Origin: a virus
Virus record (IMG/VR): IMGVR_UViG_3300009082_000017
Span: 96,043-160,042 of that record
Reading direction: 5' to 3' (one strand)
Length of the DNA: 64,000 nt
Shown here: piece by piece, positions 11,381-36,314 of the stretch
How positions within the stretch are numbered: the stretch's first letter is position 1
Layout: every line of letters starts with the position of its first letter
Notes under the pieces: generated by a model
Database searches by the model: none
Told to the model about the DNA's origin: nothing
Seen by the model: the letters and a program-made list of their open reading frames with translations, nothing else
Made by a program: the position numbers and the translations under genes

Positions 11381-11903
11381 AATCCCAGAAGTTGTTATTT
11401 TTAATCCCATTATTTATGGAGATAATAGAGGTTTTTTTGCAGAGATATTTGTTTATAAAGAATTTGAAAATAGATGTGGGAATTATTTATTTGTTCAAGA
11501 AAATTATTCAAAATCTATTAAGAATACTTTACGTGGACTTCATTATCAATTACAAAAAGAGCAAGGCAAATTGGTATCTTGTATTAATGGTGAAATATTT
11601 GATGTGGCTGTGGATATTAGAAAAAATTCGCCCACTTATAAAAAATATGTATCTGTTTTATTATCAGATAAAAACAAAAAAATGGTTTGGATTCCACCTG
11701 GATTTGCTCACGGGTTTTTTACTTTAAGCGATATTGCCGAAATAGAATATCGTTGTACAAATTATTATAGCAAAGAAAATGAAAGAGGTATTAGGTGGGA
11801 TGATCCGAGTGTTGGAATTAATTGGCCTATACAAGATGGAGAATTGCCTATATTGTCTGAAAAAGATAGTAAATTAAATTTTATTAATAGTGAGGAGAAT
11901 TGA
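11361..11903 (+). CDS. rmlC: dTDP-4-dehydrorhamnose 3,5-epimerase
   Basis: DNRGFF, TLRGLHYQ, GKLV, DVAVDIR, PPGFAHGF. Confidence 0.95.
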   Translation: MEIIETEIPEVVIFNPIIYGDNRGFFAEIFVYKEFENRCGNYLFVQENYSKSIKNTLRGLHYQLQKEQGKLVSCINGEIFDVAVDIRKNSPTYKKYVSVLLSDKNKKMVWIPPGFAHGFFTLSDIAEIEYRCTNYYSKENERGIRWDDPSVGINWPIQDGELPILSEKDSKLNFINSEEN

Positions 11904-14404: not shown

Positions 14405-15054
14405 AAAAATATTTAAAAGATGTTACTCTCCTTGCATATGATACTCGCCCAGATAAAATTGAAGGGACTATTTGGGCACTACAAAAATGTTGTGAGGGAT
14501 TAGATTTTTATGAGGTTAAGTTGTTGACAGATATAATGCCTGATAATTTACCTGAAAATATTAAATTGGAATATGCTCCACACATTAATCATATTAATGA
14601 TTTTAATTTGTATATGTTCTTAGAGTTAGGGAAACACATAGATAGTTCACATTGTTTGTATGTACAGGATCATGGGTTTGTTATTTCGCCTCAGATTTGG
14701 CGTGATGAGTGGTTAGAATACGATTATATTGGGGCTGGATGGAATTGGATGCCTGATGCTTATGTTTGTCATGAAACGGGTGAACATGTTCGACAGGGCA
14801 ATGGGGGATTTTCACTTCGCAGTTCTCAAATTTTAAATTTGCCTAAAGAAAAAGGGTGGTATTTGAAAGAAGAACAAGGCTGGAAAAATGAAGATGGACA
14901 AGTGTGTGTTTATTGGCGCAAAGATATGTTAAAAAATGGAATAAAATATGCCCCTATTGAAGTTGCATCTGTTTTTTCTTATGAAAAAGATACCCCAGAG
15001 AATATGAATATTAAAGAATTTTTCGGATATCATAGAAATATGCCTAGGAGATAA
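14401..15054 (+). CDS. DUF5672-like GT-A fold protein
   Basis: YVQDHG, YDYIGA.W, GNGGFSLRS, ED, FGYH. Confidence 0.75.
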   Translation: MKKYLKDVTLLAYDTRPDKIEGTIWALQKCCEGLDFYEVKLLTDIMPDNLPENIKLEYAPHINHINDFNLYMFLELGKHIDSSHCLYVQDHGFVISPQIWRDEWLEYDYIGAGWNWMPDAYVCHETGEHVRQGNGGFSLRSSQILNLPKEKGWYLKEEQGWKNEDGQVCVYWRKDMLKNGIKYAPIEVASVFSYEKDTPENMNIKEFFGYHRNMPRR

Positions 15055-15056
15055 TA

Positions 15057-15713
15057 TTGAATAAACTTTTTATAATTAGTCGATATAATGAAGATTATTC
15101 TTGGATAAAAGAATATACTAAAAATTATCTTATTTATAATAAAGGTGATCTAATTTTAGATGATTCTCACGTTATCAATACCGAAAATATTGGTGGAAAT
15201 CAACGAGACATATCCAAATTTGCTTTTGAAAATTATAATAATTTACCAGATATTATGATATTTATTCAGTCGTTTGTTTGGGATCATTGTAAAAAAGATA
15301 TTTTTGACAACCTAATCCAAAATACAACATTTACCCCTTTGGAATATTATGGAAGTATTCCGGCAAATGGATGGGAACAAAGAGATGAATTTGGAGGGTT
15401 CCTTGAGACGAATAATAATTGGTACATTTCTGCACATAATTCAACTTATAATTTAACTTGCAGATATGAATCTTTTGATCAGTTTATGAATAAATATTTT
15501 GAAGACTACCAACATTTAGATTTTATTCGTTTTGCTCCAGGTTCACAATATATCATTACACCAAAAGAAATTTTACAATATCCAAAAACATTTTGGAAAT
15601 GCTTGATGGAAGAATTGACAACAAAAAATTCAACTGAAGCGCACATCGTAGAAAGAAGTTTATATTATATTCTTAATGGTGATTATAATTTGAGAAAGGA
15701 TTTTTATGGATAA
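15057..15713 (+). CDS. DUF3431-like protein (glycan-locus associated)
   Basis: ISRYNED.SW, IYNK, NIG, NY..LPD, AHIVER. Confidence 0.7.
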   Translation: MNKLFIISRYNEDYSWIKEYTKNYLIYNKGDLILDDSHVINTENIGGNQRDISKFAFENYNNLPDIMIFIQSFVWDHCKKDIFDNLIQNTTFTPLEYYGSIPANGWEQRDEFGGFLETNNNWYISAHNSTYNLTCRYESFDQFMNKYFEDYQHLDFIRFAPGSQYIITPKEILQYPKTFWKCLMEELTTKNSTEAHIVERSLYYILNGDYNLRKDFYG

Positions 15714-16641
15714 TTTTTCACAATACAAACCAGGTTTACATAAATTGGTTCATCATTTAGATCATTTAAAAAAATTACAAAACAGAGAACCATCCTCCCC
15801 TTTACATTTATCTGTTTTCCCTACAAATTTTTGCCAATTAGAATGTCCTTATTGTGGATTTAGAAAAGTAAAAAGAAATAACACAGAATTATCTTTTGAA
15901 GATTTTAGCAAAGCAATTGATGTTTTAGTAAAGTATGGGTTGAAAGCTATGGAACAATCAGGTGGTGGTGATCCTCTTTTATGGTCTCATTTTGATAAGG
16001 CAACAGAATATGCATATAACAAAGGTTTGAAATTATCACTAGTCACTAATGGATTGGAATTAGGTCACATGTCATCAAAAACTTTATCTTTATTTTCTTG
16101 GATACGAGTTTCAATACAATCAGAAGCATATGCAAGAAAAATAGATTTGAGTAAAATTCCAAATAATATAAAAAGAAGTATGTCATTTATTGTTCACGAT
16201 GAAAAATCTTTTAATGAATTGGATAAAATACATGAATTTGCAAAAGAAAAAAATATTCTTATTAGGATTGCACCAAATAGACCTTGCGACAAAAGTTGGG
16301 CAAATAAAGTAAAAGATAAAGCAGAAAATTTAGGACACCCATTTTTGTTTTTTGAAAAATCTAATGAAACTCCTAACGGATGCTACATGGCTTGGATAAG
16401 AGCAGCATTAGATTGGGAAGGTAATTTTCTTCCTTGCCCATCAATTGAATTGACACCAGAATGTGCTGGATATATTCCTGATAATTTTAAATTATGCAAA
16501 GTGTCGGAATTGGAAGAATGGATTTTAAATAACCCTGTACACGATTTAGGACATCGTTGTAAATTCTGCAATTGTGGTAAAGACACAAATGATTTTGTGT
16601 ATGGGATGCTTCAAGATATAGAGGATGTGGATTTTGTATAA
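15706..16641 (+). CDS. radical SAM protein with SPASM/Twitch-like C-terminus
   Basis: CQLECPYC, SGGGDP, LVTNG, C-terminal Cys cluster. Confidence 0.85.
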   Translation: MDNFSQYKPGLHKLVHHLDHLKKLQNREPSSPLHLSVFPTNFCQLECPYCGFRKVKRNNTELSFEDFSKAIDVLVKYGLKAMEQSGGGDPLLWSHFDKATEYAYNKGLKLSLVTNGLELGHMSSKTLSLFSWIRVSIQSEAYARKIDLSKIPNNIKRSMSFIVHDEKSFNELDKIHEFAKEKNILIRIAPNRPCDKSWANKVKDKAENLGHPFLFFEKSNETPNGCYMAWIRAALDWEGNFLPCPSIELTPECAGYIPDNFKLCKVSELEEWILNNPVHDLGHRCKFCNCGKDTNDFVYGMLQDIEDVDFV

Positions 16642-17272
16642 TATTGATGGGAATTTTTTTGATAAAGATTATTTTGAAAATGGGAAACAAACCAATAAAA
16701 GTTTCTATGAAAATTATCATTGGATGCCTCAAAGAAGTTTTAGAGAAGCGTTAGCTTTTATTGACTGTTTGCAACTCAATGAAAATTCTTATGTTCTAGA
16801 AATTGGCTGTGCGAAAGGTTTTCTTATTCGTGCATTAAGAGAATTAGAAATTAAAGTAGATGGTGCAGATATCAGCAATTATGCCTTGTCGTTTGCACCG
16901 GAAGGATGTTGGAATTGCTCGAATGATTCTTCTTGGGATAACCATGCTAATTTTGGATACACAAATATAATTATCAAAGATATGTTGGAACACTTGAATA
17001 AAGAACAATTGGGAATATCTTTAAATAATTTTTCAAAAGTTTCAAATAAAATGATATGTGTTGTTCCAATTGGAAGCAATGGTAAATATCGAATCCCAGA
17101 ATATGAATGTGATCAGAGCCACGTCATACGAGAAAACGAGTCATTCTGGTATTGTTTTTTTGAAATGAATGGTTGGAAAGTTATAAATCATTTTCCACAT
17201 TTAAAAGGGATAAAAGATAATTGGACTCATTATCCTGATGGCAACCATGTTTTTGTATTGGAGTATAAATAA
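16625..17272 (+). CDS. class I SAM-dependent methyltransferase
   Basis: VLEIGCAKG, GADIS, DMLEH. Confidence 0.85.
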   Translation: MWILYNIDGNFFDKDYFENGKQTNKSFYENYHWMPQRSFREALAFIDCLQLNENSYVLEIGCAKGFLIRALRELEIKVDGADISNYALSFAPEGCWNCSNDSSWDNHANFGYTNIIIKDMLEHLNKEQLGISLNNFSKVSNKMICVVPIGSNGKYRIPEYECDQSHVIRENESFWYCFFEMNGWKVINHFPHLKGIKDNWTHYPDGNHVFVLEYK

Positions 17273-18126
17273 TGTTGAGTATTGATTTAACCGGTAACTG
17301 CGGAGACCAAATCCTACGCTACTGTATTTGCAGAAGTGTAGCTGAAAAAAACAATTATAGGTATGGGATAAATTCAATTACTAGTAATGATTATTATAAT
17401 GGAAAAGGACAATTATATTTTTTTAAGGGTATTGATTATGGTGAACCTAACAATACACCCTTTAGTCAATTGCCCCCAAACACAGACAATGTTTGGGAAG
17501 AAAAAAGAGAGTTTTATCAAGGATATAATTTTCATCCTTTCCAACCAGATATTTTTGATGTTACACCTAATACTAAATTGATAGTTTATTGTGGACAAGA
17601 TGCATTCTATCTGGATAAAGAAAAAGTTTCGAAATGGTTAGAGATTAAAGATGAATATGCGGAAGAATCTAAAAGGTTATTAGAAGGATCAGAAATTGAA
17701 TTAAATGAAAATACTTGTGTGATTAATTGTCGTGGTGGAGAATATAAATCAGTTCCATCTTTATTTTTAACACATAATTATTGGGACAAAGCAATTGCTT
17801 TTATGAAACAAAAAAATCCTAACTTTAAATTTATTGTTGTTACGGAAGATCCAGAATTTTATAAAACATTTTTTGATGTACCTGTTTATCATTTTAATAT
17901 TCATACTGATTACTATATTCTTAATAATGCAAAAAATATTATCGCTTCAAATTCTGGGTTTGGAATATTTCCGATTTGGACTAATAAAAATAATCCATAT
18001 GTTATCGCCCCTTATTTATGGGCGAATCATAACTACGGTGAGAATGAGGAGTGGGCAAATTCGAATATGAGAAGTTGGGATTGTTTTAATTTTATGGATA
18101 GGGATGGAGAGTTGTATGACAAATGA
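17272..18126 (+). CDS. GT11 (alpha-1,2-fucosyltransferase-like) glycosyltransferase
   Basis: GNCGDQ, INCRGGEY, VVTED, IASNSGF. Confidence 0.8.
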   Translation: MLSIDLTGNCGDQILRYCICRSVAEKNNYRYGINSITSNDYYNGKGQLYFFKGIDYGEPNNTPFSQLPPNTDNVWEEKREFYQGYNFHPFQPDIFDVTPNTKLIVYCGQDAFYLDKEKVSKWLEIKDEYAEESKRLLEGSEIELNENTCVINCRGGEYKSVPSLFLTHNYWDKAIAFMKQKNPNFKFIVVTEDPEFYKTFFDVPVYHFNIHTDYYILNNAKNIIASNSGFGIFPIWTNKNNPYVIAPYLWANHNYGENEEWANSNMRSWDCFNFMDRDGELYDK

Positions 18127-18144
18127 GTTGCATAAGGGCGGAGT

Positions 18145-18864
18145 ATGTTTATTTATAAAACGACAAACTTAGTTAATGGTAAAATTTATATAGGGCAATC
18201 TCAGCACGACATTAGTTTTGATTATTTAGGTTCTGGAGTATTGTTTACAAAAGCTATAAAAAAATATGGAAAGAAAAATTTTAAAAGAGAAATTTTAGAA
18301 GACGGTATTGTTGATATAAAAACATTAAATGATAGAGAAATTTATTGGATAGAATATTTTCATGCGACGGATATAAATATAGGATATAATATTTCTATAG
18401 GAGGATTCGGTACAATAGATCCTACTGGAAGAGTTGCAAAAAGAATATCTGAAGGAAGAAAAGGGGTTAGGTTATCTGAAGAGTCTAAAAAAATATTATC
18501 AGATGCACATCTTGGAATAAGACAAACAGAAGAAAGTAAAGTGAAAATATCAAAAACATGCAAAGAGAATATAGAAAAATTTGGTCATCCTCAAGCGGGG
18601 ATACCTAAACCTGAAGAATTAAAAGAAATTATGCGGAGAAATTCTCAAGGCAAAATTCGTGGAGGGGCATCCAAATATATAGGTGTTCAAAAAGGAAGAA
18701 GAAAAAAGTGGAAATCCCAAATAGTTTATAAGAAAAAGATTTATTATTTGGGAGAATTTGACGATGAAAAAGATGCGGCAAGAGCATATAATAATAAAGC
18801 ATTAGAGCTTTATGGGACAACCGCTAGATTAAATATTATAGAAGAGGATGAGAATAATGAATAA
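18145..18864 (+). CDS. GIY-YIG homing endonuclease with NUMOD3 repeats and AP2 domain
   Basis: FIYKTTNLVNGKIYIGQ, YLGSG, GYN; SEESK repeats; YLGEF..E..AARAYN. Confidence 0.9.
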   Translation: MFIYKTTNLVNGKIYIGQSQHDISFDYLGSGVLFTKAIKKYGKKNFKREILEDGIVDIKTLNDREIYWIEYFHATDINIGYNISIGGFGTIDPTGRVAKRISEGRKGVRLSEESKKILSDAHLGIRQTEESKVKISKTCKENIEKFGHPQAGIPKPEELKEIMRRNSQGKIRGGASKYIGVQKGRRKKWKSQIVYKKKIYYLGEFDDEKDAARAYNNKALELYGTTARLNIIEEDENNE

Positions 18865-19594
18865 TTTTAAAATTTATTTTAGAATTTCTAGCAAGGGCAA
18901 TCCACTTGGACGCACAGAACTTTCTGGTACTGAATTAGATGGAATTACTAGACAAGATTGTTTTAATAATTTATTAAGAGTTTTTGGTACAGAGAATTTA
19001 ATAGTGATTGCAGATAATGCTGACGATGATGTAATATCATTTTTACAATCTAAAGGAATAAAAAATATTGATAGAACATATTTTGGGAATACTCTTAGTT
19101 TTAGATATATTTTAGATCGAGCAGTTAGTGAATTAGATGAGGATGGCATTGTTTACTTTTTAGAAGATGACTATGCTCACAATTATAATGCCGAAACAAT
19201 AATTAGGGAAGGGCTAGAAATTGGGGATTATGTATCCTTATATGACAGCATGGACAAATACAAAGATACTGATAAAGGAGGATATAATCCCTTTATTCAT
19301 AATGGAGGGGAAGATACGAGAGTGATGATTACAGATACTTGTCATTGGAAAATTACAAATGCTACGACTATGAGTTTTGCTTCAAAAATAAAAACGTTGC
19401 GAGAAGATTATGGTGTAATTACAAAATATTGTCCTAATGGCGCACAGCATCCCATGGATTTTTTGATGTTTAGAGAATTGGTTACGCAAAAAAACAGAAA
19501 ATTAATCAATCCTATCCCTGGATATTCTGCACATATTGGGCTTGAAATGTCACCTTTTGTTCCATGGATTAAATTATTAAAAGGAGAATTATGA
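18848..19594 (+). CDS. GT-A fold glycosyltransferase-like protein
   Basis: YFLEDDY, YVSLYD, STTM-like ATTM; start likely 18857. Confidence 0.7.
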   Translation: MRIMNNFKIYFRISSKGNPLGRTELSGTELDGITRQDCFNNLLRVFGTENLIVIADNADDDVISFLQSKGIKNIDRTYFGNTLSFRYILDRAVSELDEDGIVYFLEDDYAHNYNAETIIREGLEIGDYVSLYDSMDKYKDTDKGGYNPFIHNGGEDTRVMITDTCHWKITNATTMSFASKIKTLREDYGVITKYCPNGAQHPMDFLMFRELVTQKNRKLINPIPGYSAHIGLEMSPFVPWIKLLKGEL

Positions 19595-20214
19595 GTAAAG
19601 ATATTGCTATTGAAGTACTTAAATATTTAGATTTTAATGATGGGGTGTACTTTGACGCAGGCGCGCAAAATGGCGAATTTCAGTCGAACACAGTCATTTT
19701 AGAAAGAGCAAAAAATTGGACAGGTATACTTGTGGAACCATCTCCAAAAGCATATAGTGATTGCTTGAAAAATAGAAGCCAAGAAAAAAATATTATTATT
19801 CATGGAGCATTAGTTTCTGCCGATTATGGTAAACCTACTATTATGGGGGATTTCTTTGGTCATCCTATGAATAGTATTGGTGGTAAAAGATTAAATAATG
19901 CAGGTAATTCTGTTATTGAAGTTCCCGCTTATACTATGAATGAAGTTTTGGAAAAATATAACGTTGATAAAATTGATTTTCTAAGTTTGGATATCGAAGG
20001 GCTAGAATACTGGGTATTGAAAGATTTAAACTTTGATAAATGGGCACCAAAATGGGCATTGATTGAATGGAACGAAGGGGAAGATGAATTATTTCCATTT
20101 ATGAAAAGTAAAGGATATGACTGTGTTGGAAATATTTCTGATTTTAATTTAGTGGACGACCCTCAATGGCCTCAAACACACCAAGACTGGCTCTTCAAAT
20201 TAAAGGATAAATAA
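19591..20214 (+). CDS. FkbM-family methyltransferase
   Basis: DAGAQNG..SNT, WTGILVEP, IDFLSLDIEG. Confidence 0.9.
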   Translation: MSKDIAIEVLKYLDFNDGVYFDAGAQNGEFQSNTVILERAKNWTGILVEPSPKAYSDCLKNRSQEKNIIIHGALVSADYGKPTIMGDFFGHPMNSIGGKRLNNAGNSVIEVPAYTMNEVLEKYNVDKIDFLSLDIEGLEYWVLKDLNFDKWAPKWALIEWNEGEDELFPFMKSKGYDCVGNISDFNLVDDPQWPQTHQDWLFKLKDK

Positions 20215-20218
20215 TATT

Positions 20219-21037
20219 ATGTCAAAAGTCTATGACGTTCAAACAGTCTTTAATGAAATTGATACATGGATGCTCCGTTTCGAGGTCTTGAATGATTCAG
20301 TAGATTATTTTGTAGTTAACGAGGCACCGTTAACTTTTAGTGGCAAACCTAAACCTTTATATTTCTGGGAGAATCGTGATAAGTTTGCAAAATTTTCAAA
20401 CAAAATTATCTACAATGTTTTTGACGAAGAAAAACAAGGTTGGGATCAATGGGATAGGGATAGAGAACATAAAAATGGAGCGATGAAAGCTCTTGAAGGT
20501 GTCGCCAATGATGAAGATATAATTTTCTATTCCGATGCTGACGAAATCTGGAACCCTTCCAATATCAATTTTGATAATTTTAAAGATGACACTTTATATA
20601 TTCTATACCAATCGGTATATTATTACTATCTAAATTGCCTTTGGGAAAATACTGTAGACCCAACTGCCATTTGGAGAGGGAGCCGTTATAGCTCCTATGG
20701 TTTATTAAAAAATCATTCTTTTGATGCTTTTAGAGCATACGATGGGTATTTCTTCCAGAATCAATTATTTAAAAAAGAATATATTAATAAAGGTGGTTGG
20801 CACTTTTCATTCTTAGGAGGCGCTGAGAATATTAAATATAAAATAGATTCTTACGGCCATCAAGAACTTAATGTACCTGTTATTAATGATAATGTTCAAA
20901 ATAATATTGATGCTTTACGAGATCCATTTTTCAGACCAAATTTCAGAATTAGTCCCATTGATATAACTTTAGAGACTCATCCTAAATATTTAGTTGATCA
21001 TTTAAATGAATATAGTAAATATATTTATAAAAGTTAA
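20219..21037 (+). CDS. GT17-family glycosyltransferase
   Basis: FNE.D, VDYFVV.E, TFSGKPK, SDADEI, GGWHFS. Confidence 0.85.
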   Translation: MSKVYDVQTVFNEIDTWMLRFEVLNDSVDYFVVNEAPLTFSGKPKPLYFWENRDKFAKFSNKIIYNVFDEEKQGWDQWDRDREHKNGAMKALEGVANDEDIIFYSDADEIWNPSNINFDNFKDDTLYILYQSVYYYYLNCLWENTVDPTAIWRGSRYSSYGLLKNHSFDAFRAYDGYFFQNQLFKKEYINKGGWHFSFLGGAENIKYKIDSYGHQELNVPVINDNVQNNIDALRDPFFRPNFRISPIDITLETHPKYLVDHLNEYSKYIYKS

Positions 21038-21050
21038 TTTGTTTTAACCC

Positions 21051-21079
21051 TTGACAGATTTTAGTTTATGTGTTATAGT
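21051..21079 (+). promoter_or_regulatory. sigma70-type promoter
   Basis: TTGACA-17-TATAGT, extended TG. Confidence 0.8.
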
Positions 21080-21109
21080 AATAGAAATATATTGGGTTAG
21101 GAGGATAAG

Positions 21110-21745
21110 GTGAAATTAGACCAAATTTTTGAATTAGGATATTTAATCAATTTAAAAGAAAGAGTTGATCGTTGGGAATTATGCGATCATGAGTTCTATA
21201 AAATCAATTATTATCCACAACGATTTGAAGCAATTAAAAATGAAGTAGGTAGAGTTGGATGCTTTCTTAGTCATTTAGAAATATTAAAAAAAGCACAAAG
21301 AGAAAATAAAAATGTTTTAATAATGGAGGATGATGTAGAGTTTGATGAAGATTGCAGACAAGTATTGGAAGCGTCTCTAGACGAACTTTGTGATTTAAAT
21401 TTTGATATGGCTTATTTCGGTGGGAATATTCTCCGTCCATTTTTCCAAGTCACAAAACATTGGGCAAGATTAAGCCATTGCCAATCAACCCATTGTTATA
21501 GTATTCATCGAAATTTTTTATCAACAATTATAAATTTTCTTGAAAATAATTCTACTCAAAAAACAGGATTGGCAATTGATCAATTATATGCAGACTATCT
21601 TATTCCTAATTGTAAAGCTTATATTATTATGCCCATAATCGCAAGACAACGTTCGGATTTTTCAACTATTGAAAATAGAGAAGTAACTTATGATTTGCCG
21701 GTTAAAAGATATTGGCATTATTTGGTGAAAAATGAAAAAGTGTAA
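21110..21745 (+). CDS. GT25-family glycosyltransferase
   Basis: INL..R.DR, RFEA, GCFLSH, LIMEDD. Confidence 0.88.
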   Translation: MKLDQIFELGYLINLKERVDRWELCDHEFYKINYYPQRFEAIKNEVGRVGCFLSHLEILKKAQRENKNVLIMEDDVEFDEDCRQVLEASLDELCDLNFDMAYFGGNILRPFFQVTKHWARLSHCQSTHCYSIHRNFLSTIINFLENNSTQKTGLAIDQLYADYLIPNCKAYIIMPIIARQRSDFSTIENREVTYDLPVKRYWHYLVKNEKV

Positions 21746-22577
21746 AACAATTATATTCTCTCGCAATCGTCCTCTTCAATTAACCTTATGCCTTAAAACA
21801 TTATTAAATCATTGTACGGACATTTTACAACAATCAAACATTACAGTTTTATACAGAAATGATGAGGAATATCGGCAGTCTTTTGACAATTTAATGTTGG
21901 AATTTCCCCAAATATCGTTCAAAAAGGAGGAAAATTTCAAAAAAGACCTGCTTTCTTTGCTACCACATGAAAGCAACATTTCATGGGGTAAAAATGAAGG
22001 TTTTGTCACTTTTGTTGTCGATGATCAGATTTTCACCGAAGATTTTTCAATGAAAGAAGTTATTTCAACACTTGTTGAAAATCAGGATTGTATAGGGTTT
22101 AGTTTACGTCTTGGCAAAAATTGTGTACGATGTTTCCCTTATGATTGTGAGCAAGCAATTCCAAAGACAGAAAAAGTTTCAAAGAATGTTGTAAAATATA
22201 ATTGGCAAGAAGCAGAGTATGACTTCAATTATTGTTTAGAGTTATCTGCAAGCGTTTACAGGGTAAACGACCTTATAGAGATGTTTGAGATTTGCGATTA
22301 TGACTCACCCAACCACCTCGAATCAATTATGAGTTCGTGTTTTTATAAGGACAAACCAAACCTTTTAATGTTTGAAAAATCGGCATCCTTCAGTTATCCG
22401 ATGAATAAGGTTCAAACATCACACCCAAATAGGAGTGGAGATTTCAATCCTGACACTCTTAGATTAATTTATGAAAAGGGTGGAAGATTTGAAAATAAGC
22501 AATTTGATGGTTATATTAGTAATGGAGCACATGAGATTCCAGAAAGTATAAATTTGGTGGACACATATGGCAAATGA
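21732..22577 (+). CDS. GT-A fold glycosyltransferase-like protein
   Basis: IIFSRNRPLQL, FVVDD, FSLRLG, PN.LE. Confidence 0.7.
   Translation: MKKCKTIIFSRNRPLQLTLCLKTLLNHCTDILQQSNITVLYRNDEEYRQSFDNLMLEFPQISFKKEENFKKDLLSLLPHESNISWGKNEGFVTFVVDDQIFTEDFSMKEVISTLVENQDCIGFSLRLGKNCVRCFPYDCEQAIPKTEKVSKNVVKYNWQEAEYDFNYCLELSASVYRVNDLIEMFEICDYDSPNHLESIMSSCFYKDKPNLLMFEKSASFSYPMNKVQTSHPNRSGDFNPDTLRLIYEKGGRFENKQFDGYISNGAHEIPESINLVDTYGK
21966..21985. repeat. perfect 7-6-7 site inside a CDS
   Basis: CATGAAA-GCAACA-TTTCATG, read as PHESNISWG. Confidence 0.85.
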
Positions 22578-23349
22578 TCTAGTAAGTATCTTAACCCCCA
22601 CATACAACCGTCCAGACTGGTTAGTATTAACATTGAAATCATTAATTGCACAAACCTATACTAATTGGGAATGTATCGTGGTAAATGATGCTGGTATGGA
22701 TGTTGGTAATATTATAAAAAATCTTGACGATAATAGAATAAAATATTATACAAACCCCGTTAATTTGGATTTGTCGGGTACGCGCAATGTGGCAACAGAA
22801 AAAGCAACTGGTGATTGGTTTATTATGCTTGACGATGATGATCAACTTTTTCCAGAAGCCATTGAATTTAGATTATGGAGAGCACATAAATTAAATGCAG
22901 AAATAGTTTATTCTAGGGTTTTGCAATGTTATTACGAAAAACGAGATAATGGTTATCAATATATTGGAGAAAAGCTTTATTGGGACAGCATTTATGACCC
23001 AGATTTGATACTTTTGCAAAATGTTAGCCCTTGCAATGGAATAATGTATTCTAGGAAAGCGCAAGAAGTAGGAGGATTGTTTGATACCGAATTAAAAGCA
23101 GGAGAAGATTGGTCGCATTCAATTGCTATGTCAAGACATTATCCGTTTTATGAAACTAAAATTATTGACTGTAGTTGTAGTTTTCGGACAGACAATAACC
23201 AAATGACCGGTAGCCGCAATTTTGCAATAGATCAAGCAAAGATTTATAAAAGATGGCGTTCGACAGCAAAGAACTTATCTTGGGTAGTTGAGAATCAAAA
23301 CAAATCATTATTAGCACGAGGGATTAATCCTTCTGACTTTGGACTATAG
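22567..23349 (+). CDS. GT2-family glycosyltransferase
   Basis: VSILTPTYNR, VVNDA, LDDDD, GED. Confidence 0.9.
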   Translation: MANDLVSILTPTYNRPDWLVLTLKSLIAQTYTNWECIVVNDAGMDVGNIIKNLDDNRIKYYTNPVNLDLSGTRNVATEKATGDWFIMLDDDDQLFPEAIEFRLWRAHKLNAEIVYSRVLQCYYEKRDNGYQYIGEKLYWDSIYDPDLILLQNVSPCNGIMYSRKAQEVGGLFDTELKAGEDWSHSIAMSRHYPFYETKIIDCSCSFRTDNNQMTGSRNFAIDQAKIYKRWRSTAKNLSWVVENQNKSLLARGINPSDFGL

Positions 23350-23360
23350 GAGAGAATAAA

Positions 23361-24473
23361 TTGACCCGTTTCGCAATGTTTTATTCAGACGACATTGGCT
23401 CGTTGAATTGCAGCCTTTATAATATTATTTATCCAGCAAAATATATTAATGAAAAATATCCAGGAATTCATTCTGCTGACACTTTTAATATTAATCAATT
23501 AAATCAATGGACTCCAGAAGTTGTAGAGTCAATTGAAAAAGCAGATTTAGTATTGATTGAAAGAAATTTATTTGGCGATGCACTCATTCGAGAGATGCAA
23601 CTTTTTTTACAAAATAAACCTGTCGCATTAATATGGGATGATTCTTATGAAAATATTTGCGAGGAGAACGCTAGTTTTTCGTTCTGGCACGATAGTCTTG
23701 TTCAACGTCAAAATGAAAAAGGAGTATTAGAAAATATAAAAATATTTCCGCATAATATTACACAACTTCGTAAAGCAGCTAGATTGGCAAAAGCATATAT
23801 TGGGCCATCTAGATTACTTGCAGAAGATTGGAGTAAATATACTGATTCTTATCGCATTTATAATTATTTAGATTTGGAACGTTATCCTGAAGATTCTAAA
23901 CCATTGTTGCCTTTCAATGGAATTACTATTGGTTGGTGTGGATCTCTTTCTCATGTATCATCTTTTACTGAAAGTGGAATTATTCCTGCTTTAACTTATA
24001 TCGGTAGAAAATATGACAATGTTAGAATTATGACAGGTGGAGACAAAAGGATTTATGATAAAATTAATCTTCCGAATACAAGAAAAATATTTTCATCATA
24101 TGTTCCAGATGAACAATGGGCATCGTTACAAAAAAGTGTAGATATTGGTATTGCCCCACTTACGTCATCTTTTGATCGTCGCAGATCACATATCAAAGTA
24201 TTAGAATATATGCTTTTGAAAATTCCATGGATCGCCAGTAATTTTGAAACATATGAGGAATTGGGTGAATATGGGCATCTTATTGAAAATGGGGTTGACA
24301 ATTGGAAGAAGGCTATGAGTGATGCAATTGAAAATATTGATAAGTATCGTGAGTTAGCGAATGGTAAAGCTTATGAGTTTGCCAAAGAACAAACCTATGA
24401 AAAGAATATTGATAAATTGATCGCTGTGTACCAACAGATTATAAGTTCTCCTGATAGAGATGACCCACAATGA
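23361..24473 (+). CDS. GT4-like (GT-B) glycosyltransferase
   Basis: IGWCGS.SH, DIGIAPL, K.LEY...IP.IAS. Confidence 0.8.
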   Translation: MTRFAMFYSDDIGSLNCSLYNIIYPAKYINEKYPGIHSADTFNINQLNQWTPEVVESIEKADLVLIERNLFGDALIREMQLFLQNKPVALIWDDSYENICEENASFSFWHDSLVQRQNEKGVLENIKIFPHNITQLRKAARLAKAYIGPSRLLAEDWSKYTDSYRIYNYLDLERYPEDSKPLLPFNGITIGWCGSLSHVSSFTESGIIPALTYIGRKYDNVRIMTGGDKRIYDKINLPNTRKIFSSYVPDEQWASLQKSVDIGIAPLTSSFDRRRSHIKVLEYMLLKIPWIASNFETYEELGEYGHLIENGVDNWKKAMSDAIENIDKYRELANGKAYEFAKEQTYEKNIDKLIAVYQQIISSPDRDDPQ

Positions 24474-25366
24474 TTGAAAGAATATCTGCAATTTATTCCA
24501 TAAGAAATATTATTACAAATATGAGATATATTGGTGCATCTACAGATATTAAGAAAAGATGGGATAAGCATAAAAGATATTTAAAGCACAACAAACATTG
24601 GAATTTTTTATTTCAAGAAGAATATAATATTTATGGTGAAAACGCATACGAATATACAATTGTTCAATTGCTACCGTCAGACAAAGAATTACTAAAATTT
24701 ATGGAAACATATTGGATTGTGTATTACGATTCTTTTGTTGATTGTGGGAAAGGATATAATTTGACATATGGTTCTCCAAATTTTTGCCCATCAAATACTA
24801 CGAGGGAGAGAAATAGAGAAGCCCAAAAGGGAAAAACAATGTCCGAAGAAACAAAAAAGAAAATATCTGATTTCATGTCCAGCGAAGACAATCCACATTT
24901 AGGAGCAAAAAGAAGTGAAGAAACAAAAAAGAAAATGTCAGATGCCGGAAAAGTAAAAATATTTACAGAAGAACATAAAAAGCATTTATCAGAATCTTTA
25001 TCTGGTGAAAATCATCCGTGGTTTAATAAACATTTACCAGAAGATACAAAAGAGAAAATTGCAGAGGCTCAAAGAGGAGAGAAAAGCCCTAGGTTTAATT
25101 GGCAATACACAGAAGAGGAATTGGACTTAATTTCTAGAGGAAGACAGGGAATAAAAAATAGCGGAGAACATACGAGTACTTATGTTGGAGTTTCTTTTTC
25201 AGATGCAACATGTGAATGGAGATCTTCTATCACTTTTAGAAAACAGGTTTATAATTTAGGCTTTTTTAATGATGAAATAAATGCAGCTAAAGCTTATGAT
25301 AAAAAAGCTATTGAATTATATGGCGAGAATGCTAAAACAAATTTCCCAAAGGAAAATTATAAATGA
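24470..25366 (+). CDS. GIY-YIG homing endonuclease with NUMOD3 repeats and AP2 domain
   Basis: AIYSI.N....YIG, GYN, repeated SEETKKK.S, AAKAYD. Confidence 0.9.
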   Translation: MIERISAIYSIRNIITNMRYIGASTDIKKRWDKHKRYLKHNKHWNFLFQEEYNIYGENAYEYTIVQLLPSDKELLKFMETYWIVYYDSFVDCGKGYNLTYGSPNFCPSNTTRERNREAQKGKTMSEETKKKISDFMSSEDNPHLGAKRSEETKKKMSDAGKVKIFTEEHKKHLSESLSGENHPWFNKHLPEDTKEKIAEAQRGEKSPRFNWQYTEEELDLISRGRQGIKNSGEHTSTYVGVSFSDATCEWRSSITFRKQVYNLGFFNDEINAAKAYDKKAIELYGENAKTNFPKENYK

Positions 25367-25581
25367 ACATCCCCGAAACCCTAACCTATCTCAACACAGA
25401 AATACAACTCAAAAAAGCGAGCCTCAAAAACTCGCTTTTTATTCTATCTATGGTTATTGAAGATACAAACGTTGGAAGTATAGAAGATGTTATTATAAAT
25501 TATTATAATAGTCAAGGAATATCGTGTAAGGTAAAACGATGTAATTTGACAGGTGAATTTGAGATTAGTATTTGGTGGTAA
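25363..25581 (+). CDS. hypothetical protein
   Basis: ATGA overlap with upstream stop. Confidence 0.6.
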   Translation: MNIPETLTYLNTEIQLKKASLKNSLFILSMVIEDTNVGSIEDVIINYYNSQGISCKVKRCNLTGEFEISIWW

Positions 25582-26035: not shown

Positions 26036-27211
26036 TTGAATTTCAAAAGGAAGGAGGAATACATTATATATAAAACGATTTTTGTTCCAGTGAAATGCAA
26101 TAAAAAAGATTTTGAATACATAAAAACTTTAAATAAAATTTCTGCAAATGTGTGGAATTATTGTGTTGAAATAGACAAAGAAAATGGTCAAAAATTAACT
26201 TTATCGCAATTAGAATTTATGACTAAAAATAAATTTCCATTACATGCAAAAGGAATACATCATATTGTTTTTAAATATTTGAATGCAAGGAAGTCAATGT
26301 GGGAAGTTATTAAAAAGAATAAAGACAATGGAAATAAAATAACCTTACCATATAGATTAAAAGAATATATGCCCACTGGTTGGGATTCACAGGCAATACA
26401 TCCAGAATATGACAATAATAAAATTAGGCTTACTTGCATTTTGGGTAGAGGACAAATTGTTTGCAAAGTTAAATCAATACCCAACAATATCGCAGAGATT
26501 GAATTGGTCTATAAAGACGAATATTATTTATCTATCAAATATAAAGAAGAAAATGATACAAATTTAATTCAATCGGATAATATTGCTAGTATTGACCTTG
26601 GAGAAATTCATGCAATTACAAGCATTGACAAATTTGGGAATTGTGTTATAGTTACTAATAGAAAGATTCGTAGTTTAATTAGATTAAAAGATAAAAGACA
26701 AGGCGAATTACAATCTTTAAGATCAAAATGCGTCAAAGGAAGCAAACAATCTAAAAAATATACAAAAGCAATTTATGATATTAAATATGAGTTTGATAAC
26801 AAAATTTTGGATGCGCTTCACAAACAAACAAATTTATACGTCAAATGGTGTAGAAGTCATAAAATTTCGAAAGTTTATTATGGAGATTTAGATACCACTA
26901 CTAGAAACAGCAAAGGCAAGAAAAGTCAAAAAATAAATCATAAATTAAGTATGTGGAGATTTGGTATATTAATTAAACAACTTCAATATAAACTTTTTCA
27001 ATATGGTATTGTAATGGAAGAAATAAGTGAAGCATATACAAGCCAAACTTGCCCAAATTGTGGCAATAGAAAAAAGACGGGAAGTAGAAACTATTCTTGT
27101 AAGTGTGGATACATTCAACACAGAGATATTGTAGGTGCAATAAATATATTGAATTTTAATACAGATACTGATTTAAAAATGTATAAAAACAAGGTATATC
27201 TACAAATCTAG
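26036..27211 (+). mobile_element. tnpB: TnpB RNA-guided nuclease (IS605/IS1341-like), no TnpA
   Basis: SIDLG, YYGDL with downstream SEAYTS, CPNC...CKC zinc finger, HRDIVGA. Confidence 0.9.
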
Positions 27212-27377: not shown

Positions 27378-29554
27378 ATGAACAACGAATATCAAGACTG
27401 GCGATCCATTCTCAATCCACCTACAAAAGATGGTGAGATTTGGATTTATGCTTATATTTGGGACGACGGATGGTGTATCATTAGAAAATATTATTACATG
27501 TCTGAGGGATTCAAAAAAGGTACGGCAAGATGGATGCCCATTATAGTTCCTCAACCACCTACCGATGTAGATTTTAGTTTATATGAAACCCCATAAAACG
27601 ACTGTTTCATGCGCAAAAAAAGGAAAATAAATGAAAAAATCTAAAAAAGCAAAATTAGTAATCACAGAAAAACAATATACTAAAAAAGAATGTCAACTTA
27701 CTTGCCCACATTGTCATACTGAATTTCATTATATGAATGGATTTGATGAAAATATTTTATTATACAAATGTACTCAATGTGGAAATTCTATTAGACTATA
27801 TGATTAAGGATAAAATAAAATGCCCCTAGATAGAGACCTAGAAGATACTCGTGACGAAGAATCATATCAAAACTATTCTGATGAAAAAGAAGAAGCATTT
27901 TGGGATGAGGTTGATTATGAATATGATAGAATGATGGATGATAAAATGGATAAAGAAAATTGGTGAAAAATATGACTGATCAACCGGCTGATAGTTATTG
28001 TAAAGGATGTAAATTTTTGAAATTAATTTATGAATTGGATGACAGGCAATATTATTTTGGATGTGAAAGCAAAATGACTTGTGATAAAATTAAAGAAAGT
28101 GAAGAAAACAAAAATGGCAGAGAAAACTAACCCTATCTATAAAATTTGTACTTGTTGCCAAACCCCATTCCACTATACTAAAAAATGGAATGACAAAATT
28201 CTCGAACAAGAAGCCATCAAACGATATGGTGATACTGTGGTGAAGCAAGAGGGTGTTGAAATTTGTAAGAAGTGTTGGGATGGGTTGGAGAAACCGGAAG
28301 GAAATAAAAATGATTGATGCTGAAAAATTAAGAATTATTACTAAAGAAGGTAGTATTAAAAAAGAAAAAACAATTTTGGAAAAAATCAATGATTTTATTG
28401 AATATGTAGAAAAAGAAATAAAATATAAAGCGTCAAATGGATTTTATTCTGCAAAAATTGATCCTATTAATTTTGATAAAAATTTAATAGACACAAAAAT
28501 AATCAATGAAATTAGAAAAAAACTAGAAAATTTTGGCTATAAAGTTGAAATGGATTATATTAGTGATGATATTTATATTAGTTGGTATAATTCATGAAAC
28601 CGGTATTTCATGTGGTAAAAAGGATAAAAAATGACAAAAAATAAATGTATATATGAAAAATGGGGTGTATATTTTGCTCAGGGATGTACGGATCAACATA
28701 TATCAGAGCACACTTGTAGTGATTGGTGCATATGCCCAAAATGCGGAAAAGAAATTGAATTTTATGTTGAGCCAGAAGAGTACAGAGAAAAACAACCAGA
28801 AATTTATGAGGATGTAACTAGTGAAAAATGGTTCGCTGAAATAGTTTTTGAAGATGGAGAGCGCATTAAAGCTATTGGGAATTCTAAAATGGATGTTACT
28901 TTGAGATGGAATAGACTGCAAAGAGAATTATTATAACCCCACGAAAGAACCATTTCATGAACTTGATTAAATTGGTATCTTGACAAGTACATCAAAGTAT
29001 GATAAACTTATTAAAATTGAATTTACATTAAGGAGAAAATATTATGAGTAGCAATAAAGGTATGAAAAATTTAGATATTGAAAGTATGAAAGGCGATATT
29101 AATAGTGACGAGAATACAACAAATGCAATAGACGACTTTGAACCAACCGACGCAGAATTACAAGAAATGATGAAAGAACTCCACATCGAAGAAGAAGCAG
29201 AAACCAAGAATAAAATTTTAGAAGACTGGTCGGAAGTGACTTGTATTTCTTGCTTAAAGCCAGTAGACTTAATGAAGGCAGTTTTCATTGATGAAGCACC
29301 TTACCATAAACATTGTGCAGAAGAAGAGTTGCGATATGAAGACTAGTATTACACAAAACGAATACGAATTACTTACTTTTTTAAAATCGCAACAAGATCA
29401 ATTGGAACGTATGTCTAACCGTATGTATTATTATGCAAAGAAACTCTTAGAATTAGAAGATGACAACTGGCTCACAGATTACTTTAATGATACTATTGGT
29501 GTTACGGCGTTTTTGAATCAAGTTGGTATTGATATTGATACGAAAAACCCTTGA
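27378..29554 (+). CDS. run of small hypothetical proteins (27378, 27631 zinc finger, 27820 acidic, ~28113, ~28310, 28631, 29044, ~29336)
   Basis: Tightly packed + strand ORFs, several with RBS; several CxxC motifs. Confidence 0.65.
28980..29008 (+). promoter_or_regulatory. sigma70-type promoter
   Basis: TTGACA-17-TAAACT, extended TG. Confidence 0.8.
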
Positions 29555-29579
29555 CAGATAGCGAATAATGTAGTAAACT
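29551..29579 (+). promoter_or_regulatory. sigma70-type promoter of the tyrosine recombinase
   Basis: TTGACA-17-TAAACT. Confidence 0.8.
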
Positions 29580-29604
29580 TATCTTATAGAAAAGGAGGCA
29601 TCAC

Positions 29605-30555
29605 ATGGTTACTGAAAAAAATAAAAAAGAACTCAAAATAATTGAGAAAAAAGAATTAGATAAATTCTTGCATCGCAAGTCTATTAAGTCTGAGCATACT
29701 AGGAAGTCATACAAAAATTGCATTGGACAATTGTTTGATCATTATAATATTGAAACGATAGAAGATTATCAAAAACTCACATTGTCTAATTTCGAAGATT
29801 ATCTTAATTCTTTACCAATCAAAGATGCCTCGTATAATCAACACCTTCGCTCTCTAAAGGTTTTCTCGTCTTGGTTAAAGAAGCATGATAAAATTCAAGA
29901 AGATATCCTCCAACCAATTAAATTGACTAAGGTAAACGCAGTTACTGGCGATAAAGAATATGATAAGAAAAGACGAGCGAAAGAAAAGTTATATCTTACA
30001 GATAATGAAATTCAAAAAATGATTGCTGTGTCAAAAAATATAAATTCTAAATTAGCTATTGCCCTTATGGGGTATATGGGACTTCGCAGAGAAGAACTTG
30101 TTGGTTTGACTATCACAGATGTTCATGGAGATTTCTTAGGGATTCCAGGGAAAGGCGGTACATACGAAGAAAGAAAAATGCCTCCTGCTGTAAAGTTTTT
30201 GGTAAATGAATATTTGAAAACCAGAAATAATAATTCTGAATATCTTATCGTTTCAAAAGTTGGGCAACATCAAATTACAAATACCAATTCTATTTATGAA
30301 AGGATCAAATCTGCCGGAAGAAAAGCTGGAATTGATGCCGAAAAAATGAAATTAGTTACCCCACATACAATGAGACGAAGTACTGCTTGTAATGCTGTAC
30401 TTAGGGGTGTTCCAAGTACTGTAGTCAAAGAGATGCTTAGGCATCAACGACAAGTTACAACTGATATCTATTTGGAAGCGTTAAAAGGATCTGAGGCAGT
30501 TGATGCAGCTTTTGATTCACAACCAATGCCCGATATGTCAGTTTTGATGGTATAG
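29605..30555 (+). CDS. XerC/D-like tyrosine recombinase
   Basis: SAM-like N-terminus (S..T...Y), GLRREE (R), GKGG (K), PHTMRRS (HxxR), LRH, TTDIY (Y); strong AAGGAGG RBS. Confidence 0.92.
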   Translation: MVTEKNKKELKIIEKKELDKFLHRKSIKSEHTRKSYKNCIGQLFDHYNIETIEDYQKLTLSNFEDYLNSLPIKDASYNQHLRSLKVFSSWLKKHDKIQEDILQPIKLTKVNAVTGDKEYDKKRRAKEKLYLTDNEIQKMIAVSKNINSKLAIALMGYMGLRREELVGLTITDVHGDFLGIPGKGGTYEERKMPPAVKFLVNEYLKTRNNNSEYLIVSKVGQHQITNTNSIYERIKSAGRKAGIDAEKMKLVTPHTMRRSTACNAVLRGVPSTVVKEMLRHQRQVTTDIYLEALKGSEAVDAAFDSQPMPDMSVLMV

Positions 30556-30564: not shown

Positions 30565-33500
30565 ATGGAAATCGAATTATCTAAACTAGAATGGGAAAGA
30601 TTTTTAACCTACCATGAAGAAAAATATGGTGAGTATGGATGGTATCCAAATTTAACCGGAGTAAACGTAGTAGATAGAAATACTGGTAAGTTGGTTGGAT
30701 TTCGTCAAAATATTCCAGAGCGATGTTTTATTTTGGAAGAATGGTTAGTGGGGACACCATGGGAAAAATTTGTAAGTGTAACCACGGTTACTAATTAAAA
30801 GGATAAAAAATGAATATTTTTAATATGTTGATAATTCTGTTCCTTGTGTTAATGTTTTTTATTAGTTTGACTATTGATTCAAAATATTATAATAAATCGA
30901 CAGGGGAGTTGCCATAATGACACATGTTACGGTTCATCAACTTACAGCAAGAAATAGTGAGAAAGTTTTCTTAAATGTCGATAATGATGTTTATGGATGT
31001 GTTAGTGTTTGGGGATCTTGTTATCAAAGACGAACATTTTTAATTCAAAAAGATTGTGATTTTTATCTTATGCAATTTGAAAATGATGAGTATTATAAAG
31101 AATGGCAAGAAAGCGAATCTGGTAAATTTTGGAAAGATGCAAGAATAACAGAAATTTTACCAATTATTAAAGATGATTATTACACCATGAAATAGAGATT
31201 TCATTCGGTTGAAGAAAGATAAATTATGAGTAAACCTATTATTACAGAAATTAGTGACGAAGATGGTCTTTATGAAATTAGAGAAGATTATTTGGGTAAA
31301 GAAATTATTCCTTGTAAAGACGTAGAAAAATGGGGGAATAATAGTTTTTTTGGAAATAAATTGAATGGATTTATGTCTGGCCATTTTATAGTGGATGGTA
31401 GAGAAACTTGTTTCTTTGCTGTAAAATATGGAAAGGGAAAATAATATGTCACAACACTACGACTTAATTACAGAAATAAAAAATCTACCCTTTAACATCA
31501 AAAATATTTTTGATTGGTCAAAAGTACTCTGGAATAATTTCGATTGGAGTGGTGATTTTCTTCTTGAAATTATCGAGTATAAATTAAAGAGAATGAAGCA
31601 GTATATGGAAGTTGATACTTTTGTTTGCAAAGAATCGGCTAAAGAAGATATTGACCAGATCAATTCTTGTTTAGAAGCATGTAGAAACTTGATATCAAAT
31701 GATTTTGAAAGTGATTTGGCAATAAAACATTATGATAAATACCCAATTAAATATGAACGTTACGTTGACGAAAAAGGACTTAGGCATACAGTTTGGAAGA
31801 ATATGGGCGAACAAGAAAAAATAGAGTTTGATGAAATGACAAAATTAATTGATGAATATCAAGAAAAATATAAACACCAATTATTCGACACCTTGCGTGA
31901 AAAATATAATTGGTGGGGAGATTAGTATGACACATTGGAATCACCGTGTAGTAAAGAAAGAATATCCTGAAAGTGCAGAGGTGTACACAGAATACTCTAT
32001 TCGAGAAGTCTTCTATAATGATGATGGAACAATCTACGCCTACACCGAAAACCCTATGGAAACTCGTGGAGAATCATTAGATTCGTTGCGAGAATATCTT
32101 ATGAGATGTTTGAAGGCTTTGGATCAGCCTGTTTTGGTAGATGGTGAGGTTGAGTTTAATGATGGTGGTGAAGAATGGAATGAGGAGTTTGGGCCATTCA
32201 ACAGCATGGAAGAATTAATGAAAGCTCTTGAAGCAGAAGATGAAGAAAATGAGGATGAAGATGCAATCGTTTGATACAGGGAAGGATGATGCGAGATACC
32301 GCGAATTACAAAATGCTTGGTCTGATGATAAGATTACTTGGAAGCAATTTCAAAAAGCCGAAGAGTATAAGTTTAGTTTAAATCAATTATTGTTTTGGGA
32401 TAGTTGTAGTTTTTGGGATAAGGTTATGGTTGTGTTTGGTAGAAAAGAATATCCAGATCAAGATATTTATGATACTAGAAGTGTATATTTTCAGGAAAGA
32501 GAAAAAATTATTAGTAAAGTAATAAAATATGGTTATGATAATAATATTCAATTTTCTTTCAAGCAAATGAAAAGTTTTGATCCATTACATGATAGAAATT
32601 ATAAAGAAAATTGGAAAGAGTTTGTGAAACAAAATGAGGTCAAAGATGTCTCATTGGAATCATAGAATTGTTTTAAAAGTTTATCCTTCTGGGGAAGCAG
32701 AATATTCTATTAGGGAAGTACATTATAAAAGTGAGGATGATTCTAATCCAGTATCATATAGCGCAAATCCACAACCTCCTTGTTCTGACACACCAAATGG
32801 ATTGAAATGGTATTTGGAAAAATCATTGGAAGCTTTTGAAAAGCCTACTTTGTTTGAGGGGCAAATTACAGAGTTTGAGAAGAATAAGTTTCAATGAAAC
32901 AGTAGTTTTATGGGGAAGTAAAATATAAAAATAGGAGATGAAAATGAGTAAAGAAAATGAACTAGAAAAAAGAATAGAAATTCTTGAAAAAGAAATTAGT
33001 GATATAAAAGAAAACATGAAGAAAAGAAGTGCATACATTATCACTAGGCTTTCTTGCGGAGTATGGAGACAATATTGGAATGAAAGGGCACAATGTTATT
33101 CTCGTTCTTTCTCTGATGCCACATTCTTTTCGGAAGAAGAAAAGAAAGTATACACTCGTAAATTAATGAGTGGTGAGTGGAGAAAGATTTCTTCGTTTTT
33201 GGATTTTCAATAAAATAATAATTTCATTAGGTTAAATTGGGTGGCAACGGAAAAGGAAAAGGTGAATACATATGGAAAATGTAAAGAATTTTGATAAAAT
33301 GAACGACGCCTTAAATAATATATTTTCAAATGGTAGTCAACCATACCACATTGACTATGAAAGAAGTTATGGCAATTTATTTGGGAATGATATAAAAAGT
33401 GCTGTAAAATTTTATTTGAGATTAGGATCTGAAGTAATGTATCCTAGTGATAAATATGCAGGATTTGTTTTATATCCTCAAGCCCTTAATCCGTTTTTAC

Positions 33501-36189: not shown

Positions 36190-36263
36190 GTACCCTTAGC
36201 TCAGTTGGTTAGAGCAAGCGGCTCATAACCGCTGGGTCACAGGTTCAAGTCCTGTAGGGTACA
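36190..36263 (+). tRNA. tRNA with CAT anticodon, most likely tRNA-Ile2 (lysidine type); CCA not encoded
   Basis: Cloverleaf: GTACCCT/AGGGTAC, GCTC/GAGC, AGCGG-CTCATAA-CCGCT, ACAGG-TTCAAGT-CCTGT. C4 and C5 in acceptor stem (TilS determinants); no initiator features. Confidence 0.93.
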
Positions 36264-36314
36264 CTAGGGCAATGAGGCAACCTATTTCTTTTATTTCACA
36301 GGAGGTAAATTATT

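Follow-up and report, generated by a model that had tools for sequence, protein, structure and literature searches.

An intact Xer-type tyrosine recombinase among the junction palindromes of a large SPbeta-group phage, and candidate readers of the palindromes

Xer recombination sites consist of inverted arms around a 6-bp centre; the left arm of difH, AGTTATGAAAA, ends in ATGAAAA (PMC5357621). Here we analyse rec1, a tyrosine-recombinase gene in a 64,000-nt stretch of phage DNA (the window; bases 96043–160042 of the 160,042-bp record IMGVR_UViG_3300009082_000017, hereafter G000), which lies among many palindromes of the form CATGAAA-N6-TTTCATG at gene junctions. rec1 appears to encode an intact, working enzyme of the Xer type. 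A conserved role for this enzyme as reader of the junction palindromes is improbable, and rec2, a YomM-like recombinase encoded elsewhere in the same genome, correlates better with them.

The Xer proteins XerA, XerC/XerD, XerH and XerS give the best sequence and fold matches to rec1 and share its two-domain build and its full R-K-H-R-H-Y catalytic set, but rec1 falls far below all equivalog cut-offs (XerA, XerC and XerD). The settings differ as well: Xer systems have one site per replicon, whereas the junction array has ~90, and XerS and XerH adjoin their own site, which rec1 does not (its nearest palindromes lie 645 bp upstream and 630 bp downstream) and rec2 does in 7 of 9 genomes.

Among SPbeta proteins, the nearest to rec1 is YopP, an annotated site-specific integrase of the yopMNOPQR operon, at the profile level only (97.4% probability, E = 9.6e-12, 240 columns). 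Like rec1, YopP is an early-region tyrosine recombinase of an SPbeta-type phage, in which integration is carried out by a different (serine) enzyme; the two proteins are only ~20% identical, and orthology is not established. A second protein of that operon, MrpR (YopR), has lost crucial catalytic residues, binds a repeated intergenic element termed SPBRE, with ~10 promoter sites, and represses lytic genes (PMC10516654). Here a protein with the tyrosine-recombinase fold recognises an element repeated between the genes of an SPbeta-type phage (PMC10516654), but rec1 keeps all of its catalytic residues and has no significant similarity to MrpR. Identity of SPBRE with the junction element is ruled out: the palindromes of the yop region, one upstream of yopM with an MrpR promoter-region peak and one after yopR, differ from it in sequence.

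Among multi-site systems, the pdif/dif modules of Acinetobacter plasmids resemble the junction array in that many Xer-type sites flank accessory modules in varied contexts, but they use host XerC/XerD and alternate in site orientation (PMC6449649), whereas the junction sites belong to a phage and have symmetric arms and unique, position-conserved centres. PeSL cassettes of T4-type phages are likewise short conserved intergenic elements that mark gene swaps in hyperplastic regions, but they are longer promoter–terminator units that undergo homologous recombination among each other (PMC2839356, PMC4122927); the junction sites have arms of only 7–10 bp and centres that are all different, and their exchange is apparently confined to the same address. 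Integrons (IntI, attI and attC) also combine a tyrosine recombinase with arrays of gene-bounding sites, but rec1 fails the IntI model and is without the IntI insertion, and the junction sites are not folded sites of the attC type. Among lox variants, which differ in spacer, recombination requires a partner of the same kind. To our knowledge, no natural array of such heterospecific sites has been described.

The rec1 gene, its product and its relatives

Sequence and predicted structure together mark rec1 as a real and intact gene for a simple, Cre/XerA-style Xer-type tyrosine recombinase, predicted to be catalytically competent and to have its own conserved promoter (Table 1). Residues 130–292 match PF00589 (E = 3.5e-21; 76.2 bits against a cut-off of 27.1), residues 27–94 give a weak match to a SAM-like N-domain, and PHROG integrase families match the protein as well. 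The catalytic residues R161, K183, H254, R257, H280 and Y289 are unchanged in 23 homologues, with identities down to 32%. An exact TTGACA, a −10-like box and a GGAG-type ribosome-binding site precede the gene in 11 of the 11 relatives examined, whose protein identities range from 35% to 80%.

The AlphaFold2 model of rec1 (pLDDT 88) comprises a helical core-binding domain (residues ~16–93), a linker and a catalytic domain (residues ~117–304), and contains neither an extra N-terminal arm-binding domain nor an IntI-type insertion between the β-hairpin and the next helix. By sequence, the closest solved proteins are archaeal XerA (4a8e, 3.9e-18) and XerD; the closest solved folds are those of XerA, the lambda Int core, IntI4, XerH and Cre. 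XerA is also the nearest NCBIfam model (2.6e-36), yet the score of 125.5 bits stays below the equivalog cut-off of 220, as do those for XerC (77.4 against 335), XerD (66.5 against 330) and the integron-integrase model TIGR02249 (40.8 bits against 265).

About 24 metagenomic proteins are 46–80% identical to rec1, with outgroups falling to 35–41%. Wherever DNA is available, the gene occupies the identical slot, after a glycosyltransferase block, with two small open reading frames (ORFs) before it and one of 75–80 aa after it, and this block of four genes appears to have been inherited vertically in one clade of large SPbeta-superfamily phages (about 140–165 kb). A search of 185,579 bacterial and archaeal species, with one genome for each, found no relative. 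The ORFs flanking rec1 have no match to repressor or excisionase families, no att-like repeat or dif-like unique site was found near the gene, and no duplicated tRNA end was seen beside it, the sole tRNA gene being 5.6 kb away. Because it is without relatives in the species genomes and without a nearby repressor, excisionase or att-like repeat, rec1 is unlikely to be a lysogeny integrase.

The original prediction for this locus fares well on these points. It had described a protein of 316 aa with the full catalytic set, its own promoter and a ribosome-binding site, which agrees with the ORF, the invariance among 23 homologues and the promoter conservation in 11 relatives; the absence of an arm-binding domain and of an obvious IntI insertion, borne out by the AlphaFold2 model and the score against the IntI model; and the absence of an adjacent repressor, excisionase or att-like tRNA duplication, with which the family searches of the flanking ORFs and the repeat search concur. 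Its term ‘stand-alone’ holds within the window but not for the whole genome, where rec2 is a second tyrosine recombinase.

Junction palindromes and their 6-bp centres

With up to 3 mismatches allowed, CATGAAA-N6-TTTCATG occurs 45 times in the window against 13.7 expected, a count reached in 0 of 100 shuffles; with up to 2 mismatches there are 35 sites in the window and 92 in the 160-kb genome. Each occupies the gap from a stop codon to the following ribosome-binding site, and some are followed by a TTGACA promoter. The sites are dyads of 20–26 bp, and their symmetry continues into the flanks (a-CCC ... GGG-t). Their geometry is that of an Xer core site, with inverted arms around a fixed 6-bp centre, and the arms end in ATGAAA, like the left arm of difH. 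The boundary of the centre is sharp: its first base is A in 2 of 92 sites and its last base T in 6 of 92 (positions 8 and 13 of the 20-mer), and the same scarcity holds in the site-bearing genomes G002, G003 and G009.

Read as a stem, the palindrome has two variable pairs without compensatory change: pair 1 is C-G in 34 sites, C.T in 27, A.G in 24 and A-T in 6, and pair 4 is G-C in 44, G.T in 15, A.C in 20 and A-T in 1. A hairpin of RNA or single-stranded DNA is thereby ruled out, the variable stem positions being uncompensated and their association in fact negative. Intrinsic terminators are likewise ruled out, as the sites are without T-tracts and were not picked up by a terminator scan. The junction palindromes behave instead like duplex protein-binding sites, with half-sites that degenerate independently as in operators and recombinase core sites. 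Scans of IMG/VR with the palindrome pattern gave mostly single chance matches among the matches listed.

Near-consensus promoters (TTGACA-17-TAnnnT) follow palindromes within 10–30 bp in window stretches 3314–3390, 10043–10100, 28940–29008 and 53051–53100; at this spacing, some junction sites therefore seem to double as transcription-unit boundaries. A variant palindrome, ATAAAA-N6-TTTTAT, forms a dense array in an 8.2-kb metagenome contig (L043) that carries a rec1 homologue of 35% identity; there are 10 exact junction copies, with the left arm often overlapped by a stop codon.

All 92 centres in G000 are mutually different. Centres that are identical to one another, reverse complements of one another or palindromic number 0 in G000 against 8.1 expected (P = 0.0003), 1 in G002 against 9.0 (P = 0.0017), 0 in G003 against 3.4 (P = 0.033) and 0 in G009 against 3.7 (P = 0.021). 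Identical pairs alone, in one genome, are only marginally depleted (0 against 2.8 expected, P = 0.06), and uniqueness becomes significant once the count also takes in palindromic and reverse-complement centres and extends to three independent genomes; this combined test rules out chance as the reason that all spacers differ. Self-complementarity of the centres is below expectation in G000 (64 against 84) and G002 (65 against 83), more weakly so in G003 and not in G009. The sole centre shared by two sites of one genome is GAGTGG in G002 (positions 39824 and 122083), and the right arm of the site at 39824 is damaged (TATCATG).

Between relatives, the centres are conserved by position. In the 143-kb relative G002, 43 of 88 sites share their centre with a G000 site, against 3.0 by chance, and the order is kept; looser site sets give 50 identical centres (3–4 by chance) and ~3 collinear one-base variants, with arms differing by 9.1%. 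Three centres, GCAACA, CGACTG and TGCCCG, are retained even in a relative whose rec1 is 49% identical. In 21 of the 43 shared-centre pairs, there is no protein-level similarity in either 400-bp flank. At the 10 junctions with both flanks homologous, half of the centres have changed, and unchanged centres therefore mark junctions with replaced genes. Pairs with one homologous flank have 6 arm differences on the left and 4 on the right (by eye), not concentrated on the replaced side. A crossover confined to the centre was accordingly rejected as a reading of these differences, which do not separate site-specific from short-homology recombination. The centres fit recombination that needs a matched centre, whether site-specific or by very short homology. 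The expectation that the enzyme must tolerate spacer mismatch was wrong: each centre keeps its position from relative to relative, so a co-infecting genome can supply the matching one.

A gene for an N6/N4 DNA methyltransferase was seen at different addresses in two genomes, between CATATA and TGCAAA in G000 (window 55049–55822) and between CTGCCA and CAGATA in the relative L001 (16861–17630), at 70–77% nucleotide identity; either the gene has moved between slots or the two copies are paralogues.

Candidate readers of the junction sites

Exact copies of ATRAAA-N6-TTTYAT number 43 in G003 and 63 in G009 (about 1 in shuffles). Among cultured phages, Geobacillus virus E3 has 24, Tsamsa 21 and SPbeta 14, whereas controls have 0–1. 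No rec1 orthologue is detectable in the site-bearing G009, E3, Tsamsa and SPbeta. The rec1 profile has no match in G009, G007 or G008, a BLASTP comparison of rec1 with the recombinase of G009 is not significant and the corresponding hhalign probability is only 74%, and a tblastn search of 50,697 phage records returned only generic integrases at <30% identity. Conversely, an 8.4-kb contig (L041) with a rec1 homologue of 41% identity in the same synteny has 0 sites. Across eight genomes, the nearest site lies 645–1832 bp upstream and 205–1126 bp downstream of rec1 (812–1832 bp and 205–1126 bp in the seven relatives), never adjoining it.

The original prediction had rec1 recognise the palindrome and looked for the two to occur together. 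They do so in the G000 clade, in L043 with its variant arms and in G003, but the pattern it had named as counter-evidence, motif without gene or gene without motif, is largely what is seen: four genomes have sites and no detectable orthologue, and L041 has the gene and no sites, over 8.4 kb only. Neither distribution nor position supports recognition by rec1. It is a weaker candidate than rec2, and the palindromes probably do not have it as their conserved reader.

By these two measures, rec2 is the better-correlated candidate. BLAST detects homologues of it in every site-bearing genome examined, G002, G003 and G006–G010 among them; 128 records of cultured phages from the SPbeta/Tsamsa/E3/949 group have one too, and rec2 is one of only six proteins common to G000, G003 and G009. 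In 7 of 9 metagenomic genomes (G000, G003, G006, G007, G008, G010 and, with 1 mismatch, G009), a site lies 60–92 bp upstream of the rec2-like start, and some of these genomes have merely 8–11 sites in total. The arrangement recalls the XerS/difSL and XerH/difH modules, in which the site stands beside the recombinase gene (PMC5357621). An extra recombinase as the mark of array genomes was ruled out separately: two or three tyrosine recombinases are encoded in sparse-site genomes as well (G006–G008 and G010). That rec2 is the enzyme of the junction sites is a fair possibility but less likely than not. Slightly more probable, though short of an even chance, is that neither phage recombinase acts on them; exchange would then depend on an Xer enzyme of the host, on some other phage protein or, as for PeSLs, on short-homology recombination.

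For rec1 itself, the reading that we prefer, with a probability of roughly 45%, is that of an active accessory recombinase whose target is other than the junction sites, rather than a lysogeny integrase, an integron integrase or a dead-recombinase repressor of the MrpR type. The gene would be transcribed from its own conserved host-type promoter as part of the vertically inherited four-gene block, its product might act as a dimer or tetramer on its own core site, a short inverted repeat, and it may have an accessory task peculiar to the clade, for example in the resolution or rearrangement of phage DNA; the junction sites themselves would be barcoded crossover points common to the whole superfamily. 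Several observations weigh against this. Of four lineages with dense arrays, three have rec1-family genes (the G000 clade, L043 with its ATAAAA arms and G003), and in G003 the rec1-profile match (E = 2.5e-30) lies within the array region. The palindromes are built like Xer sites, and the genome encodes only one tyrosine recombinase besides rec1. No conserved palindrome was found in or beside the rec1 block that could serve as its alternative target, nor was a second abundant palindrome family found in the G000 genome. The assignment of the sites to rec2 has its own difficulties: rec2 belongs to the core genes, and common ancestry alone may therefore account for its presence alongside the sites; Lactococcus phage P1048 has a rec2-like gene but 2 sites only; and the adjacency of rec2 and a site was not found in E3 or Tsamsa.

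It is unlikely that, within its clade, rec1 recombines the junction palindromes, either by itself or together with rec2. In that role, rec1 would bind as a dimer to the inverted ATRAAA arms, cleave at the edges of the 6-bp centre and exchange only with a same-centre partner, catalysing spacer-addressed recombination over ~90 sites with common arms and unique asymmetric centres; such heterospecific sites would permit block swaps in register between co-infecting genomes and forbid deletions and inversions of the phage's own genome. The duplex-dyad behaviour of the sites, without covariation at pairs 1 and 4, is in keeping with this, as are the centre fixed at 6 bp between difH-like arms, the scarcity of identical, reverse-complement and palindromic centres in four genomes (G000, G002, G003 and G009), the 43–50 collinear identical centres of G000 and G002 (21 of 43 without flank homology), the presence of rec1 with its own promoter within an accessory region and the three dense-array lineages with rec1-family genes. 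It must be set against the orthologue-less sites of G009, E3, Tsamsa and SPbeta, the empty contig L041, the lack of any site adjoining rec1 and the better positional and phyletic correlation of rec2. Moreover, the arms keep their sequence between genomes in which BLAST does not link the rec1/YopP-like enzymes to one another, so a shared DNA specificity is unlikely.

Large phages often carry Xer-like genes, a caveat that the original prediction had also raised, and with the PHROG integrase matches and the Xer fold this frequency lends some colour to a conventional role in a temperate or plasmid-like lifestyle, as integrase or as dimer/multimer resolvase at a single, unique site of the att or dif kind. 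The lack of an arm-binding domain, of a unique att- or dif-like site near the gene, of repressor or excisionase neighbours and of any relative in the 185,579 species genomes, together with a sole tRNA gene 5.6 kb off and no duplicated tRNA end seen beside rec1, makes such a role quite unlikely. We consider it very unlikely that rec1 is a DNA-binding regulator with a retained recombinase fold, like MrpR/YopR of SPbeta. MrpR, YopR and SroF are among its Foldseek matches, two rec1 homologues (P0027 and P0030) have faint matches to PF22823 (MrpR_C_cat), and binding of MrpR to SPBRE is documented (PMC10516654), but the six catalytic residues are invariant in the 23 homologues, whereas MrpR is without crucial ones (PMC10516654). 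In hhalign comparisons, the rec1 profile matches SPbeta YopR at 11% probability (E = 0.0028) and the neighbouring, enzyme-like YopP as strongly as given above, and the two palindromes annotated around the yop operon differ in sequence from the junction sites. The single abundant palindrome family of G000 also speaks against a regulator with repeated sites of its own.

Genome setting and meaning

The G000 record is 32% G+C, its ends overlap, and nearly all genes lie on a single strand. It encodes a DnaE-type polymerase, RecJ-like and Dda-like proteins, a primase, the glycosyltransferase block and several TnpB genes. None of its cultured relatives is close (DNA polymerase identity ≤33%). Sequence comparisons place it in the broad SPbeta/Tsamsa/E3 group of large siphophages. 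A 55.8-kb genome, G001, covers neither recombinase region. Coordinates of the main features are collected in Table 1.

Table 1. Features of the rec1 locus and its array (window coordinates unless stated otherwise)
Feature	Position	Strand	Basis and remarks
Junction array, 35 sites matching CATGAAA-N6-TTTCATG (≤2 mismatches)	304–60471		Pattern count; window part of the 92 in the genome
Junction palindrome, centre GAACCA; nearest upstream of rec1 (645 bp)	28940–28959		Same centre at syntenic place in G002/L001
Second promoter, TTGACA-17-TAAACT, after the GAACCA palindrome	28980–29008		Consensus scan
Two small ORFs accompanying rec1 in relatives (29044–29346 and 29288–29554)	29044–29554	+	tblastx synteny with L001, L020 and L021; no Pfam family
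rec1 promoter, sigma-A/sigma-70-type: TTGACA (29551–29556), 17 nt, TAAACT (29574–29579)	29551–29579	+	Consensus scan
rec1 ribosome-binding site, AAAGGAGG, 6 nt ahead of ATG	29591–29598	+	Direct sequence reading; kept in relatives
rec1, two-domain Xer/YopP-like tyrosine recombinase, 316 aa	29605–30555	+	ORF, Pfam, PHROG, catalytic residues, fold, NCBIfam, profile comparison
77-aa ORF, kept directly downstream of rec1 in relatives	30565–30798	+	tblastx, gene tables of relatives; no Pfam family
Junction palindrome, centre TAGAGA; nearest downstream of rec1 (630 bp)	31186–31205		Same centre in L021 and G002
rec2, YomM-like tyrosine recombinase, 344 aa	Genome 15909–16943 (L031: 1429–2463), outside the window	−	Adjoins RuvC-like gene (L031: 2535–3002) and tape-measure N-terminal ORF

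Other genes of the window were noted in passing. A block of glycosyltransferase-, aminotransferase- and methyltransferase-like genes (11300–25400) is nearly without junction palindromes and is kept upstream of rec1 in relatives. Two TnpB genes (OrfB_IS605/Cas12f-like TNB; 1357–2556 and 26036–27211) have no tnpA nearby, and relatives carry TnpB at different positions, for example at 230–1459 of L024 and at the end of L021. The single tRNA gene, for tRNA-Met (36190–36264), has 93% nucleotide identity to its counterpart in L001.

Taken alone, rec1 is an ordinary-looking Xer-like recombinase of a phage, and its interest lies in its setting. The candidates among the phage enzymes are narrowed to two, of which rec1, the one originally proposed, is the weaker on distribution and position. 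The junction sites look as heterospecific recombination sites should: they are duplex dyads with a constant 6-bp centre, the centres include no repeats, inversions or palindromes, and their order is kept between relatives while the neighbouring genes change. Were spacer-addressed recombination by rec1, alone or with rec2, to be true, co-infecting phages would swap gene blocks solely in register, and their own genomes would never be deleted or inverted. If a phage recombinase does read the sites, they would represent a new route to the safe shuffling of accessory genes in viruses and a toolbox of orthogonal sites.

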